Virus record (IMG/VR): IMGVR_UViG_3300009103_001934
Location: 96,001 to 160,000 of that record
DNA length: 64,000 nucleotides
DNA from: a virus
Reading direction: 5' to 3' (one strand)
Shown here: positions 10,519 through 32,061 of the stretch, in pieces
Position numbering within the stretch: the first letter of the stretch is position 1
Layout of the letters: each line of letters opens with the position of its first letter
Notes under the pieces: model-generated
Database searches by the model: none
Seen by the model: the letters and a program-made list of their open reading frames with translations, nothing else
Told to the model about the DNA's origin: nothing
Made by a program: the position numbers and the translations under genes

Positions 10519-11160
10519 ATGAAAAAAGTGACATTAACTGATTTGAACGGGAAAGAGATAGAAGTATATTTTGCAGATGATAAAACAGTGAAAAGCGTGA
10601 AACATAGTGATAACTATGAAGTAAAGATTGAGGATGTTCCCACAGACCAGAATTGGTTTGAAATGACGGGGGGAAAACCTGCCGTTGGCGAGTGTGGGTC
10701 TGATTATGATGACCCTGACCATCCCCTAAATAAGCATGATGAAGGCCAAACGTACTGGTTTAGCGGGGGTGAGCAAGACGTAAACGAAAATAGCGCATGG
10801 TGCGGCGCGGGTGATGAGGACTGCGGAAAAGAAACGAAAGAAAATTTTTACCAAAAGTTAAATAAACAGTGGCTAAATAAAGCAAACAAGCTTGAACAGT
10901 CTGGGAGCCAAATAAAGATAGACGATACGATTCCTAGCGATTTTCTTGAAACGCTGGAGCTACGCCCCCAATCAATTTACAGAGTAGCGGGATTGGATTT
11001 GCTCGCAAAATTTGTGGGTAGTTTTTCCACGGTAGTACCCGATGGTAATAAAATCTTGCTTCAAATGAAAAGACATGGTACTATATTCTATGTAGAAGAA
11101 GACAGCTTAATGAAAGCTACTGACCTAGAGGTACAAACCTATCTCGAAGAATCTAAATAA
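10519..11160 (+). CDS. Hypothetical protein, leaderless
   Basis: TTGACC(10484)-17-TATCAT(10507), with ATG 6 nt downstream. Confidence 0.75.
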   Translation: MKKVTLTDLNGKEIEVYFADDKTVKSVKHSDNYEVKIEDVPTDQNWFEMTGGKPAVGECGSDYDDPDHPLNKHDEGQTYWFSGGEQDVNENSAWCGAGDEDCGKETKENFYQKLNKQWLNKANKLEQSGSQIKIDDTIPSDFLETLELRPQSIYRVAGLDLLAKFVGSFSTVVPDGNKILLQMKRHGTIFYVEEDSLMKATDLEVQTYLEESK

Positions 11161-11184
11161 ATAAATAAATAAATAAATAAGACT

Positions 11185-11478
11185 ATGGAAACTAACGAAG
11201 TAAATCCCACGGAAGAATGCAAAGATTGCGACAACAAGCCCAATTTTTCCGAAATGAGCAAGCAGGAACAAAACTGGATGCTTATGACGATTTTGCAAAT
11301 GCCTTGGCATCATGCAAATAAAATTGAAGATGAGTCCGATAGGCTTTTTCTTTTGAAGAAGGCGCAGGAGATTCAAATCTTTATGCAGCAACAAGAGCAG
11401 ATGAGGATGCAGCAACAGCAGATGCAAGAGCAACAGGACATTATTATGCCTCCCCCATCTTCAATCGTTACCCCGTAA
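11185..11478 (+). CDS. Hypothetical protein with Gln-rich C-terminus
   Basis: MQQQEQMRMQQQQMQEQQD. Confidence 0.7.
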   Translation: METNEVNPTEECKDCDNKPNFSEMSKQEQNWMLMTILQMPWHHANKIEDESDRLFLLKKAQEIQIFMQQQEQMRMQQQQMQEQQDIIMPPPSSIVTP

Positions 11479-15590: not shown

Positions 15591-15839
15591 ATGACTGATA
15601 AAGAAATCCTAAACGAAGTTTACGCTCGTCTAAATTTGAAAACGGACAATAGCTTTGAAGTCCATACTTTCAAGTCGATTACTGAATTTATTGAGAGAGA
15701 ATGGCAGAAGCAAGACGAGCAGGAATACGATGAAACCGTCCCTAGTTTTAGTAAACAGTGGTACACGGATGTTCGTGATATGGAACGTCATCGCGGATTG
15801 GAAATCGGGCCTGACGGCACAGTGATGGAGGTCAAATGA
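15591..15839 (+). CDS. Hypothetical protein
   Basis: Promoter TTGACA(15554)-17-TAGAAT(15577). Confidence 0.65.
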   Translation: MTDKEILNEVYARLNLKTDNSFEVHTFKSITEFIEREWQKQDEQEYDETVPSFSKQWYTDVRDMERHRGLEIGPDGTVMEVK

Positions 15840-23938: not shown

Positions 23939-24197
23939 GTATTTTCTTTAAAACAGTGTAAATAATAATAAGACCTTGCTAAATAAATAAATAAGGCAAG
24001 CTCAACAGGTTATGTTCAAATAAGCTTTGTAGAATAGGTTCGTCAAATATAGAACTGAAATAAAGTAAAAATAAAACAGGCCCAAATAAGGTAAGGTTTA
24101 AACTAAATGAGAGTCAATCTCAACGTCCCTCCTTTATGCTAATGAGACTCATTCTCAATTTCACCGGTCCCGATGTTGGCAATCAAAATTCCAAGAA

Positions 24198-24280
24198 AAT
24201 GATCGACAAACTATTTTGCCGCTCACGAATGATCGACAAACAAATTTGCCAATCAAAATCTTCCCAAAATGATCGACAAA
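24198..24280. repeat. Three direct repeats AATGATCGACAAA
   Basis: Copies at 24198, 24228 and 24268 (30- and 40-bp spacing). Confidence 0.9.
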
Positions 24281-24332
24281 AAAAAGTAAAAAAAGGCTTG
24301 CACTAAAATGGGATGTACGGTATACTATTAAA

Positions 24333-24785
24333 ACAGTGAGGGTAACACCTCCACGATCTTTGAGACAATTTAAGAAGGCGACTGTGGTAGTCCTCACGCA
24401 AGTGAGTGCCCTCGCGGGAAAGCCCCCAGTGGAAGCGCGACGAAACTGGACGGTGATACGATACCGGAGGGATGGGGTTCGACTCCTCACGCCCTAACAA
24501 TTTAAGCCTTGGGTGACGGAACAAACGTCCGACAGAGGAAACGGCCCAAGCAATTTTTACTCCGGCGACGGTTGGAGTAAGGGAATGGCTGAATAACCCT
24601 CCATCATAAGGGGTAAGGCACAGGGCCGCGCGTTAGAGTGCAATCGTATGAGGCGCGTGGTTCTGGTAGACTGGTAAACTTGAACTGTATTGTGCACTGG
24701 TCTTGATGGTAATGCAGCAATCCATCTTCCCATTAATTTAGCATAATCCTGAGGTTGGTGAAAACCATTAAAGAGATATTAAGCA
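24333..24785 (+). ncRNA. Candidate structured ncRNA(s) containing a tRNA-like T-arm
   Basis: Promoter TTGCAC(24298)-17-TATACT(24321), no + strand ORF, many hairpins with GNRA loops, T-arm TGGGG-TTCGACT-CCTCA. Confidence 0.55.
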
Positions 24786-24835
24786 ACAACGCCGAAATCC
24801 GCCTCTGATTTTTTTTGCCCTAATGTTAATTTTTT

Positions 24836-24873
24836 GCTTGACACGCCGGGACCGGTCCCGGCGCCTGTCAAGC
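24836..24873. repeat. Module A1: GCTTGACA-CGGGACCGGTCCCG-TGTCAAGC
   Basis: Core at 24847-24860, T-tracts on both sides, DnaA box at 24879. Confidence 0.95.
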
Positions 24874-25137
24874 TTTTTTTATTCACAGCCTGTGAGAATT
24901 TCTTAAAAAGGGGCGATTTCTCCGGTGTGAAATTCGGCGTATATAAGAAACTATTTGACCCCATACCCTGCAAAAACAGTGTCAAGCTCAAAAACAATTA
25001 CCCTATATAAACGCATTTAATTAGCCTAATTAAAAAAGATGTGTGTGACGTGCATTTTTTTCTTGCCAGTGATTAGGAAGTGTGAGATAATGGTTTTAGT
25101 CGATTGAGACATAACTACTAACGAAAGAGAACGAACT

Positions 25138-26073
25138 ATGCCTATTACCGCAAAACAAAGCAAAAACAAAGATTGGGATTTCACCGTAGCACAGGAGGAG
25201 CTTTTCCTGCCTGACGGCAAGAAGTCCGGTTTCTTCGCGTCCCGCCGCCTCGACAACAACGAGGTGCTGGGCTGTCACACTAGCCGCTACGGCATCGTCC
25301 AGAATGGCGACCTAGTGGAAAAAGCCGAGAGTGCTTTTCGCCGCAAGGGATTGGGCGATTTTGAGCGCAACATCTATGTGACTGACGGCGGAGCCAAGCT
25401 GCGCGTCAATTACGACTTCCAAGGTCACGATATTGAAGTGCCAGAAGTGGGTGACAAGATGGGCTTTCGCCTGACCTTGCAAAACTCATTTGACCGCTCG
25501 CTGCGCGTGTCCTTTGCGCTCGGTATGCTTCGCCTCGTTTGCACCAACGGTATGCAGACGCTCGAAAAGGAATTGGATATGCTCAAGAAGCACTCCAAGA
25601 ACTTTGACCTCGGCGCGTTGCTGACTGATGACGCAATCGACAAGGCTATGGCTACGTTCACCAACACGGGGAACACATACGCCGCGCTGGCTCGCGTTGG
25701 AGTTACTCAAGAGCAAGGCATCTTCGCCCTGCAAAACCAAGCCAACACTGGTTTGATTTCTGACAAGGTGCGCGAGGGTATCGCAAGCGTGTGGAACAAC
25801 CCACGCGAGGATGGTGCTGACGGTTCGGTTGGTGATGACCGCAACCTCTACCAACTCTACAACGCTGCCACGCAGTACCTCACCAGTGACAACTTGGTTG
25901 ACAAGAAGTCTGGCGATGCTGTCGGCACGTTCGAGTCCACCCGCTTCGAGTACGCGAACCGCGTTAGCTCGCAACTGCTCAAGCGGTTCAACCTCGCCAG
26001 CGACAACCCCAAGCGGTTTGACAAACTGGTTGCGGTTGCCAAGGCTGACGGCGTAAAGGTCGAGAACAACTAG
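25138..26073 (+). CDS. DUF932-family phage/plasmid protein
   Basis: YGIVQN, QNSFDRS, RLVCTNG, LYQLYNAATQY. Promoter TTGCCA(25063)-17-GATAAT(25086). Confidence 0.8.
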   Translation: MPITAKQSKNKDWDFTVAQEELFLPDGKKSGFFASRRLDNNEVLGCHTSRYGIVQNGDLVEKAESAFRRKGLGDFERNIYVTDGGAKLRVNYDFQGHDIEVPEVGDKMGFRLTLQNSFDRSLRVSFALGMLRLVCTNGMQTLEKELDMLKKHSKNFDLGALLTDDAIDKAMATFTNTGNTYAALARVGVTQEQGIFALQNQANTGLISDKVREGIASVWNNPREDGADGSVGDDRNLYQLYNAATQYLTSDNLVDKKSGDAVGTFESTRFEYANRVSSQLLKRFNLASDNPKRFDKLVAVAKADGVKVENN

Positions 26074-26089
26074 GCCAAACCTACAAACA

Positions 26090-26117
26090 CCCCCCGCCTT
26101 CGGGCGGGGATTTTTTT
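26090..26117 (+). terminator. Intrinsic terminator
   Basis: CCCCGCC-TTCG-GGCGGGG followed by a T-tract. Confidence 0.9.
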
Positions 26118-26136
26118 GCGATTGTGGAAACTTTTT

Positions 26137-26175
26137 GCTTGACATTCGGCGGGACCGGTCCCGATTTTGTCAAGC
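26137..26175. repeat. Module A2
   Basis: Core at 26150-26163. Confidence 0.95.
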
Positions 26176-26241
26176 TTTTTTTGTGCGTTTGCGAATAACT
26201 TTCTTCTTGACGTAAAAGCGGATGTGTAGTACTATATAAAC

Positions 26242-26478
26242 ATGATGAACGAATTAGATCAACTCAAAGAAGACATTTGCATGAAGAGCTTCGGTCGCAG
26301 CCGAAGTCTCGCGCTAGCCGCAGGGCAGTGTGTTAAGTGTGGAACCTATGACCTCGACTTTCGCGATGAACCATCGCAACGTGAGTACAAACTCACCGTG
26401 TGGTGTCAGTCGTGCCAAGACGATTTCTTCGGGCTGGATTCGGACGGTGAAATCGCATGGGAGGAGGATGAGGATTAA
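26242..26478 (+). CDS. Small CxxC...CxxC zinc-ribbon protein, leaderless
   Basis: CVKC and CQSC. Promoter TTGACG(26207)-17-TACTAT(26230). Confidence 0.7.
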   Translation: MMNELDQLKEDICMKSFGRSRSLALAAGQCVKCGTYDLDFRDEPSQREYKLTVWCQSCQDDFFGLDSDGEIAWEEDED

Positions 26479-26990
26479 TGGATATCGCAAACACACTTAA
26501 GCGCGAGGTCTATCGCAACCTTCACTTCAGGAACGAGACCGTTTATTCTGTACGTAAGGAAGGCCTTGTAGAGGGGCATGCCCTGATGGTCATCATGGAC
26601 GGAACGACTAAGACCCCAATTAAGTTTGCGGTCGGCCCTAAGGGCAACCAGCGCGTACGTGATGAAGAGCGCAAGAACGTGCACGCTGTTATCCGCGGGC
26701 ACATCAACAACGCCGTGTGGTATACAAGTGACATGGATGTGGATGCATTCGAAATGGGTCATGCTAAGGATGCCTGCGAGTACTTTAAAAAACAGTACAT
26801 GATCGAGCGTGAGGGATATCGATGGCTTGAGGTTGTATATAATCCTTACAAGTACCGCACCTTCATGACTCGTGACACGGATCCTTTCAGATCGAATGAA
26901 GACGTCTATGAGCCTATCTTTACCGCTCGCACAGTCATCATCGGCGAGACGTGCTGGGCGCAAGTCCGGGCGGAGCACGAGATGAATTAA
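26478..26990 (+). CDS. Hypothetical phage protein
   Basis: VYRNLH, RVRDEERKNVHA, YNPYKY. Confidence 0.75.
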   Translation: MDIANTLKREVYRNLHFRNETVYSVRKEGLVEGHALMVIMDGTTKTPIKFAVGPKGNQRVRDEERKNVHAVIRGHINNAVWYTSDMDVDAFEMGHAKDACEYFKKQYMIEREGYRWLEVVYNPYKYRTFMTRDTDPFRSNEDVYEPIFTARTVIIGETCWAQVRAEHEMN

Positions 26991-27005
26991 TATTTTTCCT
27001 CCATC

Positions 27006-27052
27006 AGGCGGGTCCGGGTTTTATGTGTTTGACCGGGCCCGCCTACTTTTTT
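27006..27052 (+). terminator. Intrinsic terminator
   Basis: AGGCGGGTCCGG...CCGGGCCCGCCT followed by a T-tract. Confidence 0.8.
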
Positions 27053-27090
27053 GCTTGACATTTCGGGACCGGTCCCGCGGCTTGTCAAGC
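27053..27090. repeat. Module A3
   Basis: Core at 27064-27077, TTATCCACA at 27096. Confidence 0.95.
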
Positions 27091-27166
27091 TTTTTTTATC
27101 CACAACCTGTGAATTATTTTTTCATTTTTTTCTTGCCTTTTTCTGCTCAACCTGTATAATGCTCGC

Positions 27167-27295
27167 ATGAAGATTAAAGCAAGAGTAAGCAAACAAGGAT
27201 TTATGGGCAGCGCGTCCCGTGAACACAGAGTGAAGAAGGGCAAAGGCTCTTTCACTCGCAAACAAAAACACAAAAAAAGTATTGACACAAACTAG
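27167..27295 (+). CDS. ArfA-like 42-aa peptide (not in ORF track), leaderless
   Basis: MKIKARVSKQGFMGSASREHRVKKGKGSFTRKQKHKKSIDTN carries the ArfA signature KKGKGS[YF]xRKxKH. TATAAT at 27155. Confidence 0.7.
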   Translation: MKIKARVSKQGFMGSASREHRVKKGKGSFTRKQKHKKSIDTN

Positions 27296-27314
27296 GATAT
27301 AGGAGATAATCATA

Positions 27315-27746
27315 ATGATGATGGACGATATAAAACTGACCTACATTCCAGACTCTCACGACTGGATTAAAGTATATTTGCAAGCACCTAACGCAGAACT
27401 TGCCGAGGCGTGGTTTAATTCCTTTTGGAATCACAACGCTACAAGCCAAGACGAGCCAGAATGGATATTCAAAAACGAGTTGGCATTTTGTACCACTTGG
27501 GACAAGCTAACCAAGGCCATGAATGATATTTTTCTTTTCATCCTTCTTAATGATGATGAAGATGCTTTCAAAGGCGAGGAAGGCGGCGCGATGCCGTTTG
27601 CCAAGGAACTAGCCAAGGCCAAGATTGCAGAGATGAACAAAAAAGATTCATCCATGCGCTACGGTCGCCAAGGTCACGTTTACACACTCGGCGATGTTTA
27701 CACCAACGAGGAAAAGTCATTTTCTTCTGGAACGTGCGACGTTTAA
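27315..27746 (+). CDS. Hypothetical protein, leaderless
   Basis: Promoter TTGACA(27282)-17-GATAAT(27305). Confidence 0.7.
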   Translation: MMMDDIKLTYIPDSHDWIKVYLQAPNAELAEAWFNSFWNHNATSQDEPEWIFKNELAFCTTWDKLTKAMNDIFLFILLNDDEDAFKGEEGGAMPFAKELAKAKIAEMNKKDSSMRYGRQGHVYTLGDVYTNEEKSFSSGTCDV

Positions 27747-27783
27747 GCTTGACCTTTAACCCTCAAACCTTTATTATACTCTG

Positions 27784-28497
27784 ATGTTGAAATTCAAAGA
27801 TGCAAACGGTAAACTCAAGAAGATGGCAAAGAAGCTTGGCGTTAAGCTTAAAACCTTCACTCTCCCTGCGGGCTATACTTGCGGCGGTGCAAAGGATTGC
27901 CTCGCGTATGCCGACAGAAAAACGGGCAAAGTGAGAGACGGCAAGGAAACACAATTCCGTTGTTTCATGGCATCGCTCGAAGCCACCTTTCCAAGTCTCC
28001 GCGCTATGGTGTGGGAGAATTACGAGCAGTTACAAGCGGCACTGAAAAACGGCGTTGATGCTTGCGCGGATCTGATCCACAACAGCTTGCCAAAGAAGTT
28101 TGACGTAATGCGCGTTCACGTTGGCGGCGATTACTTCAGCAGGGCGTATTTGCAAGCGTGGATTGAAGTTGCCAAGCGAAACCCTGACAAGGTGTTTTAC
28201 TCTTACAGCAAAAGCTTGCACCTGTTCAAGCAATTTGCGTTACCGGAAAACCTTGTGTTGACCGCTTCCCGTGGTGGCAAGTACGATGATTTGATTGACC
28301 TCCACGCATGGAAAGAGGCGATTGTCGTATTCAGTGAAGAGGAAGCGGAAGAGCTTGACTTGGAAATTGACCACGACGATTCACACGCAGCGTTTGGCGC
28401 GGAGAATTTCGCGTTACTCATTCACGGCACACAGCCAGCAGGGAGCGCAGCAAGTGAAGCTTTGAAAGTCATAAAGAAAAAGGCAAGGGCTGCGTGA
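27784..28497 (+). CDS. GP88-like Cys-containing phage protein
   Basis: LPAGYTCGGAKDC, FRCF, RVHVGGDYF, FYSYSKS, IDHDDSHA. Confidence 0.65.
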   Translation: MLKFKDANGKLKKMAKKLGVKLKTFTLPAGYTCGGAKDCLAYADRKTGKVRDGKETQFRCFMASLEATFPSLRAMVWENYEQLQAALKNGVDACADLIHNSLPKKFDVMRVHVGGDYFSRAYLQAWIEVAKRNPDKVFYSYSKSLHLFKQFALPENLVLTASRGGKYDDLIDLHAWKEAIVVFSEEEAEELDLEIDHDDSHAAFGAENFALLIHGTQPAGSAASEALKVIKKKARAA

Positions 28498-28570
28498 TGG
28501 AATTTATTGTCCTTGTTGCCATCGGGTTGTATTTCGGCGCAAAGCTTAGTCGATAAAAATGACATTTTTT

Positions 28571-28610
28571 GCTTGACAGCCGGCGGGACCGGTCCCGCGA
28601 GATGTCAAGC
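28571..28610. repeat. Module A4
   Basis: Core at 28584-28597. Confidence 0.95.
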
Positions 28611-28701
28611 TTTTTCTTTGTTATTTTTTTATTTGACACAAAGTCGGAAGTGGGGTATTATATAAACAGTGCGAACGAACTAACTAAAACTAAAAAAACT
28701 G

Positions 28702-29169
28702 ATGAACAACCTACATTCATATACTAACTACATCACTGGCACAGAACTTGAGAACGGAAAGATTCTCCTGTATGCTGGCAAAACACGCAACGGTATCGAT
28801 GACCGTAAGAAAGGCAAAATGGCTTGCGGATTCATCGCTGGCGTTGGCCTAGATGGTCGTCTGTTTGACACCGTCCATTCTAACACTAACACCAAAAACG
28901 ATAAGCTCACGGAGCAACGTCACATCAACACGATTCGTGCCGTGGCGCAATTACTCCCTGACGTTATCGTTGCTGGTAACACTTATGACGATGGATTTTA
29001 TGGGGGAATCATTTCGTCCATCAGTCCTAGCGTCTACGACAAAGTCGTAAGCTGGGTACAGGGTACGCGCACTATGACAGAAAAGCGCATGGTGGCGAAC
29101 AAGCGAAAGCTGGCTCGAAAGCTCGCTCAAGTGAAGCGAGCTAGGCAAGCAAAGAAGGCTTTGGCTTAA
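28702..29169 (+). CDS. Hypothetical protein with basic C-terminus
   Basis: Promoter TTGACA(28633)-17-TATTAT(28656). Confidence 0.7.
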   Translation: MNNLHSYTNYITGTELENGKILLYAGKTRNGIDDRKKGKMACGFIAGVGLDGRLFDTVHSNTNTKNDKLTEQRHINTIRAVAQLLPDVIVAGNTYDDGFYGGIISSISPSVYDKVVSWVQGTRTMTEKRMVANKRKLARKLAQVKRARQAKKALA

Positions 29170-29269
29170 CCCTAGTAGGGGGGAGAGAGTTTGGCGTGAA
29201 TGCTTCGCCTCTTGAGTGGCTCTCTCCCCTCTTGACTTTTCAACAGAAACCCATTATACTTTTATACTT

Positions 29270-29743
29270 ATGGAGAGAATACATATAATTATTGGATTGA
29301 TAATCTTCTTTATTATTAGCATAACCGCTTCGGGCGATGAAGTCTTAACAAGGGACGAGCGTATTGTTGCACTCACTATACTGGGAGAAGCCCGTGGTGA
29401 AGGTAAAAAAGGAATGTATGCTGTCGCCTGTGTAATTCAGAAACGCGCGTCAGAACGCAACCTCACGCCAGCAAAGGTATGCCACCAACCTTATCAGTTC
29501 AGCATTTGGAACGCTGGAAAGGGTAAGATAAAAAAAGAAAGTGAGTTGTATTATTTGTGGAAATCTAAATCCATGATGTACGCCAGAGAGTTAGCGAGAA
29601 CAGTTTGCAAAGGTAAATTGTTAGATCAAAAATTCACTGGTAACGCAAATCACTATTGCAGAAAAGAAATCAATAACTATTGGACAAAGAAAGGAACAAT
29701 AACAAAGGTAATTGGAAATCATAAATTTTTCAAATTACGATAG
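29270..29743 (+). CDS. Cell wall hydrolase, SleB/Hydrolase_2 family, with signal anchor
   Basis: ALTILGEARGEG, AVACVI.KR, PYQFS.WN, IGNHKFF. Promoter TTGACT(29232)-17-TATACT(29255). Confidence 0.85.
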   Translation: MERIHIIIGLIIFFIISITASGDEVLTRDERIVALTILGEARGEGKKGMYAVACVIQKRASERNLTPAKVCHQPYQFSIWNAGKGKIKKESELYYLWKSKSMMYARELARTVCKGKLLDQKFTGNANHYCRKEINNYWTKKGTITKVIGNHKFFKLR

Positions 29744-29772
29744 GCTTCAAATAATAAATCAGTGCAAATATG

Positions 29773-29838
29773 ACCCGTCCCGAATAAGGGGCGGGTTTTT
29801 TTAGGGCAAAAAAAAGGCCCGCTTTCGCGGGTTGTGTT
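29773..29838. terminator. Back-to-back terminators for convergent genes
   Basis: CCCGTCCC..GGGGCGGG-T7 on +, and A8-GGCCCGC-TTTC-GCGGGTT read on -. Confidence 0.75.
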
Positions 29839-30044
29839 TAGCCCTCCAAACTGGAGGGGGTGAAATCACCGTGTCCGGTGATCTCAAGGGCACGCCCGTG
29901 ATCATACTCACGGATATGCTCCTCGCGCATCCGCACGGTGCGACCATCATCCTTGAGGATGAGCCACTTGCCGTGGCGCGGAGAGGCGGCGACCACGCCA
30001 ACGTAACCGTTGACGTCTTCGACTTCCATTCCTAATGTAATCAT
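29838..30044 (-). CDS. Small SH3-like hypothetical protein
   Basis: GMEVEDVNGYVGVV pattern. Confidence 0.55.
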   Translation of the reverse strand: MITLGMEVEDVNGYVGVVAASPRHGKWLILKDDGRTVRMREEHIREYDHGRALEITGHGDFTPSSLEG

Positions 30045-30095
30045 AATGATATTGATAGGGCGCGAATTCTTAGGCAGTCGCGCTCGCCCATGATG

Positions 30096-30305
30096 TTAGT
30101 CCTTCCAGACCATGTCCAGATATTCACCGTAAGTAGCAAGGTAATCCTGCCATTCGGTGTCCGTCATTAGCGGCCCATGGATTGCAACCAGATTCGCCCA
30201 ACGATCTTGGGTTTCCTGTTCGCGTGTCCACTCTTCATGCTCAAGCTGAGCTTCGATGTCTGCACTTATGGTCTCTTCTATGGTTGGCATCATGTCGTTC
30301 ATCAT
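30096..30305 (-). CDS. Hypothetical protein, leaderless (MMND...)
   Basis: Minus-strand promoter TTGTGC-17-TATATT, with ATG 7 nt downstream. Confidence 0.65.
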   Translation of the reverse strand: MMNDMMPTIEETISADIEAQLEHEEWTREQETQDRWANLVAIHGPLMTDTEWQDYLATYGEYLDMVWKD

Positions 30306-30394
30306 TAGAAAGAATATAACACGCATCTAAGAAAAGCACAAGGAAAAAATTCAAAAACTATTAACAAAAAAAATGCAATTGTGAGCAAAAAAGA

Positions 30395-30455
30395 CTTGAC
30401 AGCCGCGGGACCGGTCCCGCTTATTGAGACCGAGTCTCACTAAAGTTGTGAATAA
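30395..30455. repeat. Module B1: CTTGACA-core-TGAGACCGAGTCTCA-TGTGAATAA
   Basis: Core 30406-30419, 7-1-7 box 30425-30439, DnaA box 30447-30455. Confidence 0.95.
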
Positions 30456-30498
30456 CTTTCTCCTTGACAATTACATCCTTTTGTAGTATATTATTTAC

Positions 30499-30687
30499 AT
30501 GATGAACGATCCATATAGCCAGATAACCAGCGGAGACCGTGACAACCTGCGTGCGGAGTTTGACGAACAAATGGCGATAATTGACGGCGCGAATAACCCT
30601 GACATGATTTGGGTTCGTGGCACCCTGCCCTATGATGATGAGGGTGTACGGTGCGGGTGCGAAGACTACCCCTGTTGTGGGCATTAG
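30499..30687 (+). CDS. Small protein ending CGCEDYPCCGH, leaderless
   Basis: Promoter TTGACA(30464)-17-TATATT(30487). Confidence 0.65.
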   Translation: MMNDPYSQITSGDRDNLRAEFDEQMAIIDGANNPDMIWVRGTLPYDDEGVRCGCEDYPCCGH

Positions 30688-30707
30688 TAACTTGTGAGTA
30701 AAAAAGA

Positions 30708-30764
30708 CTTGACAGCCGCGGGACCGGTCCCGTTGAGACTCAGTCTCATTAAGATTGTGAATAA
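30708..30764. repeat. Module B2
   Basis: Core 30719-30732, 7-1-7 box 30734-30748, DnaA box 30756-30764. Confidence 0.95.
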
Positions 30765-30815
30765 CTTTTTGAAAAAACCGCTTGACTTTTTGGCATTTAT
30801 GGGTTATATTTAAGC

Positions 30816-31049
30816 ATGATTAAAACGAACATGAAAACTTACAACGTAGAGTTTACGACAGCATTCGCTGGCTCTCCGTTCGTCAACATCGTTCTTGAAG
30901 CCAAGGACGAAAAACAAGCTGAATGGGTTGCCCGTAACCTTTGCCGTTTCGGTTACATTAGCAACATCACAAAAACTGATGAAGTTGCTGCTTTTACCGA
31001 AGAAACTCACGCTTTTGCTTATGATGAAGATTATGAGATTTATTCATAG
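30816..31049 (+). CDS. Small protein, distant paralog of 32802 and 33941 ORFs
   Basis: YNVEF...IVLEAKDEKQAEWVA. Promoter TTGACT(30782)-17-TATATT(30805). Confidence 0.65.
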   Translation: MIKTNMKTYNVEFTTAFAGSPFVNIVLEAKDEKQAEWVARNLCRFGYISNITKTDEVAAFTEETHAFAYDEDYEIYS

Positions 31050-31085
31050 GTGGGACTGCGGATGTCCCACCCAGTATGCTATACT
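31049..31085 (+). promoter_or_regulatory. Palindrome-type promoter P1
   Basis: GGTGGGAC-N7-GTCCCACC-N8-TATACT with TG extension. Confidence 0.7.
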
Positions 31086-31091
31086 AGACGC

Positions 31092-31547
31092 ATGATAATT
31101 AAGAACGAGATGAAAGAAAAACTAAAACCACTATTTGACCTAGACGGAACCCTTATCCGCGAGGAGCGCGGCTCAGATCGCCTATTTGATTTCCTACGGC
31201 CTCACGCTATTCTTAATCTCACAGAACACGACCTCACTCCTCTCGGAGTGTTAGTCAGAGACTCAGGCAAAGAATTTGACATTCTTACAGCACGCGGCCC
31301 AGAGAATGCGCAGTTTATCCGTATAGCTCTTGAAGCTCTCGGATTCAACGTCGGTCGAATCGTAACCGTAGGCGTAGACATTAACGAGCCAAAGGATTGG
31401 GCTAATGTTAGCAGCAAAAGAGTAGCGGCAAAGAAAATCAGAATTGCCAAATTCGTCCAAAGGAAATTGGTTGACAACGATGCTAGGAATCTGGTAGGAT
31501 TAGGAGAGTTAGGAGAGCTAGTAGCTCAAGACCAAACAGAGTTTTAA
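31092..31547 (+). CDS. HAD-superfamily phosphatase-like protein, leaderless
   Basis: LFDLDGTL, ILTARG, LVDND. Confidence 0.75.
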   Translation: MIIKNEMKEKLKPLFDLDGTLIREERGSDRLFDFLRPHAILNLTEHDLTPLGVLVRDSGKEFDILTARGPENAQFIRIALEALGFNVGRIVTVGVDINEPKDWANVSSKRVAAKKIRIAKFVQRKLVDNDARNLVGLGELGELVAQDQTEF

Positions 31548-31548
31548 G

Positions 31549-31803
31549 ATGATGAATAAGATTATTACAATTAAAGCAAAAGCCAACGCAAGCCGGCGCA
31601 CTAAAAACCGCATTCGTGGATTTGGCCCACGTTTCATCGTAGAGAAGAAACATGACCTTAATGACATCATGGCCCTTATCGGCAAGCGTGATTCAGAGTC
31701 TTGGTTGCTGCGCGAAGTGGGCGGCCCAGACGGTGATCCGTGGTTTGGCTGGCTGCCAGCTAATGAATTTGAAATTGTTGAAACTGAAGGATTTTGGTCT
31801 TGA
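31549..31803 (+). CDS. Hypothetical protein
   Basis: SRRTKNRIR..G, WFGWLP. Confidence 0.65.
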   Translation: MMNKIITIKAKANASRRTKNRIRGFGPRFIVEKKHDLNDIMALIGKRDSESWLLREVGGPDGDPWFGWLPANEFEIVETEGFWS

Positions 31804-31836
31804 CATTTAATCGGAAAACCCATATACTATAAACAG

Positions 31837-32061
31837 ATGATGAAGAAACACAACATACAAAACGCAAGCGTATTTGCCACAAAGCAATTACGCGACAATC
31901 TTAACAAAGTGCTTACTCGCAAAGAGCGGCAACAACTTGACGAAAAAGATGCTAAAACAAAATGGTATCTTGAATTGATGATTGCTGCTTGTCTCGGTGC
32001 TGCTCTTGCCCTTGGCTTTGTAGTCGCTCACGGTATGCTCACAACTGACTGGACTTGGTAA
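31837..32061 (+). CDS. Small protein with C-terminal TM
   Basis: Promoter TTGACA(31800)-17-TATACT(31823). Confidence 0.65.
   Translation: MMKKHNIQNASVFATKQLRDNLNKVLTRKERQQLDEKDAKTKWYLELMIAACLGAALALGFVVAHGMLTTDWTW

Follow-up and report, generated by a model that had tools for sequence, protein, structure and literature searches.

Locus Layout and Gene Content

The window analysed here, 64,000 nt in length, corresponds to bases 96001-160000 of the 178,487-bp IMG/VR record IMGVR_UViG_3300009103_001934, which CheckV rates as complete. On its plus strand, positions 27167..27295 encode a peptide of 42 codons, referred to here as mini-ArfA, with an ATG start and a TAG stop at 27293-27295. A preliminary description of this DNA had reported a leaderless ORF of 42 aa with a basic motif, its own promoter and a genuine stop after the motif, and both its coordinates and its description of the ORF are correct according to the sequence and the ORF list. 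A sigma70-type promoter (27133..27160, plus strand) is made up of TTGCCT (27133-27138), a 16-nt spacer and TATAAT (27155-27160), with 10 of 12 consensus matches; the -10 box ends 6 nt 5' of the ATG with no Shine-Dalgarno motif upstream, and the TAG lies 7 codons past the KH pair. From this 6-nt gap and the absent Shine-Dalgarno, the transcription start is predicted at 27167 (plus strand), which is the A of the mini-ArfA ATG. The peptide can be divided into a clade-specific head (residues 1-16), a putative equivalent of the RF2-docking strand (17-22), a predicted mRNA-channel tail (23-35) and a variable end (36-42).

The gene upstream of mini-ArfA (26478-26990), which Pfam matches to phage L5 gp82, is ended by a terminator-like hairpin with a T-run (27007..27052, plus strand), the arms of which (27007-27017 and 27033-27043) read as complementary save for one G-T pair and are followed by TACTTTTTT. 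Next to it, an inter-cassette palindromic module (27053..27097, plus strand) contains, in order, GCTTGACA, CGGGACCGGTCCCG (27064-27077) and TGTCAAGC, and then a T-run. In the ORF list of the window, this module recurs as in-frame translations at 24834, 26135, 27051 and 28569. The gene downstream (27315..27746, plus strand) encodes an acidic protein of 143 aa from no known family, and has an AGGAG ribosome-binding site as well as a promoter-like site of its own at 27282-27310. Only 19 nt lie between the mini-ArfA stop and this gene, and since no terminator separates them, the two are probably co-transcribed. Homologs of the 143-aa protein are found within 3 kb of mini-ArfA in 18 loci, often immediately downstream.

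Conservation of the Reading Frame

A word-index search with mini-ArfA retrieved 43 homologous metagenomic protein clusters with 64-93% identity, and its relatives are encoded on 32 IMG/VR contigs and 2 MAG contigs. The profile search across 1.84 billion cluster representatives gave 153 at E <= 1e-3, including 53 at E <= 1e-10. Among 24 distinct homologs, the differences at codon positions 1, 2 and 3 number 1640, 1589 and 4096, respectively, the third being ~2.5 times the first or second. Synonymous pairs make up 56% of the codon pairs that differ. The relatives conserve the frame, the start and the position of the stop, 3-10 codons after the KH pair, with a single exception (L005).

By this pattern of substitution, mini-ArfA is a true protein-coding gene under purifying selection. 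The alternative, no functional protein but a small RNA or a chance ORF lying between genes in promoter-rich DNA, would fit a very short, lysine-rich peptide with promoters and hairpins dense around it; however, neither the 1:1:2.5 codon-position pattern and the synonymous share, nor the reading frame, start and stop positions kept on 32 viral contigs, nor the 153 cluster representatives agree with it, and this alternative is extremely improbable and already effectively refuted by the alignments. In the exception, L005 (454-864), the mini-ArfA frame has no stop and runs through the promoter of the next cassette into the next gene, giving a 136-aa frame, which may have arisen through natural fusion, loss of the stop or an error in sequencing. 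A frameshift site in the A-rich 3' end of mini-ArfA was also considered and rejected, because no in-frame X XXY YYZ heptamer is present.

Promoter Geometry and Predicted Leaderless Start

In 15 of the 28 distinct homologous loci, a promoter that passes a strict sigma70 test leaves 4-9 nt between its -10 box and the start codon, compared with 5.7% of control ATG triplets passing the same test. Among those 15 loci, 12 have a gap of 6 nt, two of 7 nt and one (L031) of 9 nt; in most of them a perfect TTGACA is combined with a 17-nt spacer, and two start with GTG (L011 and L017). Several further loci have weaker promoter boxes in the same register, and a Shine-Dalgarno motif is absent in all 27 of the 27 mini-ArfA family loci. 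The sigma70 promoter is replaced in L009 and L028 by a sigma54-like -24/-12 box, TGGCACG-N4-CTGCT, located ~30 nt upstream of the start codon and lying 12 nt before the ATG, which would again yield a leaderless transcript. In further relatives, the N-terminal extensions assigned by gene callers correspond to the translated extended -10 box.

The leaderless design is not special to mini-ArfA, since other ORFs of the window share the 6-nt geometry. Those at 10519, 12045, 26242, 27784, 30499, 32802 and 37261 begin 6 nt after a -10 box with a good -35, and further ORFs of the promoter-abutting type (6, or 7-8 nt) are found at 15591, 22595, 27318, 31837 and 35659. Across this phage clade, leaderless early cassettes thus appear to be commonplace.

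Homology to ArfA

Pfam ArfA (PF03889) was the only family match to mini-ArfA, with 21 bits (E 2.3e-4) over profile positions 26-44 of 44, which falls below the gathering score of 25.5 bits. In a six-frame search of the phage genome, the same profile scored 19.4 bits at mini-ArfA. The close homologs P0022 and P0032 pass PF03889 in the precomputed Pfam assignments, and IMG labels several close homologs as "stalled ribosome alternative rescue factor ArfA". The NCBIfam search with mini-ArfA gave no match, and the PHROGs search gave one weak match, phrog_2701 (function unknown). A profile of the mini-ArfA family searched against the PDB matched ArfA chains only (E ~0.01), over ArfA residues 28-49, and hhalign of 24 phage sequences against 11 bacterial ArfAs gave a probability of 96% and an E value of 3.5e-9, with phage residues 17-39 corresponding to E. 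coli ArfA 27-49. Among the weaker matches of the profile search, 77 of the 79 scanned are Pfam ArfA-positive (best E 9e-24), so the mini-ArfA family grades into canonical ArfA. As for the sampling of bacterial ArfA, the best 120 hits of a word-index search with the E. coli protein were all enterobacterial, and in the classes and orders around two MAGs the sampling yielded 2 of 201 genomes plus a few more.

In E. coli ArfA, residues 15-24 form a helix at the decoding centre, F25 makes RF2-specific hydrophobic contacts, Q27-E30 form a strand that augments the domain 2/4 sheet of RF2, and the C-terminal tail with residues 33-45 occupies the mRNA channel, while the A18T substitution blocks RF2 activation, leaving binding and RF2 recruitment without release (PMC8012679). 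Between mini-ArfA residues 23-35 and ArfA 33-45, the alignment is gapless and 10 of 13 positions are identical; the motif attributed to the E. coli protein is indeed present in the ArfA read from NC_000913. Both family alignments keep K24, G25 and K26 without exception, and show G27, S28 and R31 as invariant or almost invariant. In the hhalign alignment, phage S17-H20 stand opposite the sheet-augmenting strand Q27-E30 of ArfA, and the formation of such a strand on RF2 by the phage peptide is a prediction; variants of the mini-ArfA family have S-R-V-H at the site where canonical ArfAs have S-R-V-E.

On these alignments, mini-ArfA is a phage-clade-specific minimal member of the ArfA superfamily, with homology confined to the C-terminal ~23 residues. 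The proposal of an ArfA-like peptide, for which an HMM search had been suggested as a check, is therefore sustained for the C-terminal half, where the Pfam match is backed by hhalign and the profile search, and is tempered by a score below the gathering score and by a match restricted to the end of the profile.

The Head of the Peptide

The head is the most conserved stretch of mini-ArfA besides the tail. It begins with Lys-Ala-Arg, followed by Gly, an aromatic residue and Met-Gly-Ser-Ala-Ser-Arg-Glu-His, a motif nearly invariant in 44 sequences, and such near-invariance points to a specific partner rather than a mere plug. Residues 1-16 were left unaligned to ArfA by Pfam, by the PDB profile search and by hhalign, and no counterpart of the ArfA helix 15-24, of A18 or of the L24-F25 patch is detectable in the mini-ArfA sequence. 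A conserved Ala and an aromatic-Met pair are spaced similarly to those of ArfA, a correspondence made by eye only, and the distance from the hydrophobic pair to the basic motif is 3 residues longer in the mini-ArfA family than that from F25 in canonical ArfAs. The preliminary description had noted that an LLHDPLF-type segment is missing from the N-terminus; this is so at the sequence level, but the head is strongly conserved rather than degenerate, and the aligned part spans the equivalent of Q27-E30.

The profile search retrieved at least three head types on one tail type, namely the mini-ArfA head, a Trp-Asn-Thr-Gly head and a canonical ArfA-like helix. AlphaFold predicts mini-ArfA to be disordered (pLDDT 61), with no helix in residues 1-16; predicted disorder is what is expected of ArfA-like peptides and is uninformative on function. 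Longer proteins bearing the motif were inspected for fusions and matched no further Pfam domain. Very large proteins (L033:2176-5685; P0262, 1789 aa; P0221, 532 aa), likewise without another Pfam domain, contain the ArfA-like tail motif internally or at their end, and some of them may be gene-calling run-ons.

Stop Codon and tmRNA Control

E. coli arfA is translated from a truncated non-stop mRNA and is targeted by tmRNA (PMC8012679). The E. coli gene, used as a control, has a long hairpin in its 3' part; unlike it, mini-ArfA was found to have no strong 3' hairpin of the arfA type, and it is also devoid of a hydrophobic C-terminal extension. Because an ordinary stop replaces the RNase III/terminator hairpin and the hydrophobic tail, mini-ArfA would stand outside tmRNA control. 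The earlier suggestion that the ORF is unregulated is accordingly borne out in the sense that tmRNA-linked non-stop control cannot apply as in E. coli. In its layout, mini-ArfA corresponds to a "pre-truncated" ArfA closed by an ordinary stop codon.

A bacterial contig (L040, G063:C62:74-253) encodes a Pfam-positive ArfA (36.9 bits) with a real stop directly after the KH-type motif, and stop-terminated short ArfAs may thus be present beyond phages too.

Phage Clade, tmRNA and Cassettes

The carriers of mini-ArfA form one clade of large phages, with contigs that are 39-96% complete and 68-162 kb long. Their large terminase is only ~25% identical to that of any cultured phage (Bacillus, Microcystis and other phages), and megablast, tblastn and blastn searches with the region or the peptide returned nothing meaningful from 50,697 cultured or deposited phage records; five blastn hits were discarded as chance matches of 31 A-rich nucleotides. 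Phage-like contigs were found in two MAG bins (Pseudomonadales and Ignavibacteria), a link too weak for naming a host.

The phage has a one-piece tmRNA at G000:C1:70910-71327 (L045 511-928), ~25 kb before the window, detected by ARAGORN and by Rfam RF00023 with 125.7 bits, and its tag peptide ends in Leu-Ala-Ala. No gene for SmpB, a release factor or a hydrolase was found in the phage genome. The two other near-complete genomes of the clade likewise encode a tmRNA, as does one record that is 64% complete, and none was found in six fragments of the clade; mini-ArfA and tmRNA occur together in all three near-complete clade genomes searched.

Members of the clade share early cassettes that encode DUF932, zinc-ribbon, L5 gp82-like, 143-aa, GP88-like and endolysin-like proteins in a shuffled order. 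A fixed partner gene for mini-ArfA was rejected, as the order of the cassettes varies among relatives. Positions 24000-32000 of the window have a G+C of 0.45-0.475, compared with 0.35-0.42 elsewhere in the window. The shuffled order of the cassettes in related phages suggests that they are mobile units of the moron type, with the CGGGACCGGTCCCG palindrome modules as their boundaries. A full-length manA RNA motif (RF01745) is located at 24558-24736 on the plus strand, scoring 77.9 bits (E 5e-19) where the gathering score is 55.2; it is non-coding and precedes the DUF932 gene.

Proposed Function

Here it is proposed, with somewhat better than even confidence, that mini-ArfA is a constitutive ribosome-rescue factor of the RF2 type. 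Host RNA polymerase would transcribe the gene early as a leaderless mRNA, and the peptide would accumulate regardless of tmRNA activity, since it would be made independently of a non-stop mRNA and lacks a degradable tail. On ribosomes stalled at the 3' ends of truncated messages, the basic tail would enter the empty mRNA entry channel, while the strand before it and the conserved hydrophobic pair further upstream would dock a class-I release factor of the host, most likely RF2, which would hydrolyse the peptidyl-tRNA and return the ribosome to the pool. Mini-ArfA and the phage tmRNA would together raise the ribosome-rescue capacity of the infected cell, where ribosomes may otherwise be trapped through mRNA decay, nucleases or defence toxins that cleave mRNA or tRNA. 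The source of stalling named in the preliminary description, host mRNA cleaved during takeover, is speculation.

The main argument against rescue is that the RF2-activating helix is missing (ArfA 15-24, with A18, required for turning RF2 to the open, active conformation), to which the sub-cut-off Pfam score, the homology restricted to the C-terminal half and the 3-residue longer spacing add further points against the RF2 type in particular. The same absence is what a channel-plugging mimic would build on, as had also been considered earlier: the tail would fill the channel and the head would activate no release factor, so that vacant or non-stop ribosomes are blocked or parked, or the peptide competes with the host SmpB-tmRNA, for example preventing the tagging of phage proteins. 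Such a role would be compatible with a head that does not align to the activating helix and has no predicted structure, and ArfA(A18T) shows that binding and recruitment of RF2 can occur without release (PMC8012679). However, the putative equivalent of the RF2-docking strand is conserved, a competitor for the channel would antagonise the tmRNA encoded in the same genomes, trapping ribosomes early would cost the phage its own translation, and the conservation of the head exceeds the needs of a passive plug. Rescue is favoured over inhibition for the first two of these reasons, and the plug is considered quite unlikely.

The head also bears on a rescue factor with another partner, in which it would recruit RF1, either release factor in the manner of ArfT, or another factor encoded by phage or host, in place of RF2. 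Its motif is unlike the RF2-specific hydrophobic patch of ArfA, the profile search found several head types on the one tail type, and ArfT, which pairs a tail like that of ArfA with a different head, is active with RF1 or RF2 (PMC6299226). Against this, the searches of the phage genome revealed no release factor, SmpB or hydrolase gene of its own, the longer homologs include no informative fusion, and the neighbouring cassettes are shuffled with no gene fixed beside mini-ArfA; this variant of rescue is regarded as unlikely. A broader scheme, in which mini-ArfA, the phage tmRNA and the leaderless early cassettes belong to one takeover strategy, is a distinctly doubtful extension: tmRNA-independent rescue on truncated host or toxin-cut mRNAs would free ribosomes for the leaderless phage messages, and the new head may touch the release factor in a manner that none of ArfA, ArfT and BrfA shows.

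If mini-ArfA is active, these phages would carry a deregulated back-up rescue factor besides their tmRNA, which would point to ribosome stalling as a real bottleneck in infection, or an outcome of host defence. The combination of one tail with at least three heads is a natural experiment that could reveal what is minimally needed to recruit a release factor when no stop codon is present. Additionally, the conserved geometry in which the promoter abuts the ATG provides a large comparative set of candidate leaderless genes from uncultured marine phages.

Comparison with Known Rescue Systems

ArfA (YhdL; PDB 5MDV, 5U4I, 5H5U, 5MGP) is the alternative ribosome-rescue factor A of beta- and gammaproteobacteria. 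Mini-ArfA has in common with it the basic KKGKGS-aromatic-x-R...KH tail, preceded by a putative counterpart of the short strand Q27-E30, a size close to that of mature truncated ArfA, and predicted disorder off the ribosome. In contrast to ArfA, mini-ArfA is phage-borne and predicted to be leaderless, lacks the helix 15-24 with the A18 segment as well as the first 10 residues, and has a real stop instead of the RNase III/terminator hairpin and the hydrophobic tail.

Similarly to mini-ArfA, ArfT of Francisella tularensis has ~40 aa, a basic ArfA-like tail and a head unlike that of ArfA; however, its tail reads KKGGSTNKK, its gene is chromosomal and its activity with RF1 or RF2 has been shown, the two being compared here from the published description (PMC6299226). 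The C-terminal tail of SmpB, the tail of ArfB and BrfA resemble mini-ArfA in that positively charged tails sense the empty mRNA channel, although the sequences are unrelated. ArfB has a hydrolase domain of its own, and BrfA, like ArfA, is made from a non-stop mRNA.

Genes for ArfA in phages are already known from annotation in two papers and by IMG, the latter including members of the mini-ArfA family. In Pelagibacter phage HTVC027P, gp30 is annotated as ArfA and its transcript levels are high both early and late, at 3 h and at 12-15 h after infection (PMC12753301); in Citromicrobium phage RXM, g10 bears the ArfA annotation (PMC8953757). What is new here, from the comparison of sequences, is the clade-specific head, the comparative support for a leaderless start, the graded series of heads carried by one tail, and the presence of a phage tmRNA in the same genomes.

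ArfA-like ORFs of ~40 aa with real stops are found in HTVC027P (gp30), Cr30, CRP-212, RsoM2USA and Acinetobacter phage ZZ1. These five share with mini-ArfA the short length, the ArfA tail and a stop of their own, but keep the canonical ArfA-like head, with an Ala-Lys segment followed by Pro-x-aromatic-basic, from which the mini-ArfA head differs. In gp30 of HTVC027P the aromatic residue lies 8 residues before the basic motif, whereas the spacing in the mini-ArfA family is 3 residues longer. The ORFs of Caulobacter phage Cr30 (L055, KF301602 ~11139-11290), Roseobacter phage CRP-212 (L056) and Ralstonia phage RsoM2USA (L057), of ~40-50 aa and with real stops, are either unannotated or lie under or opposite other annotated CDSs.
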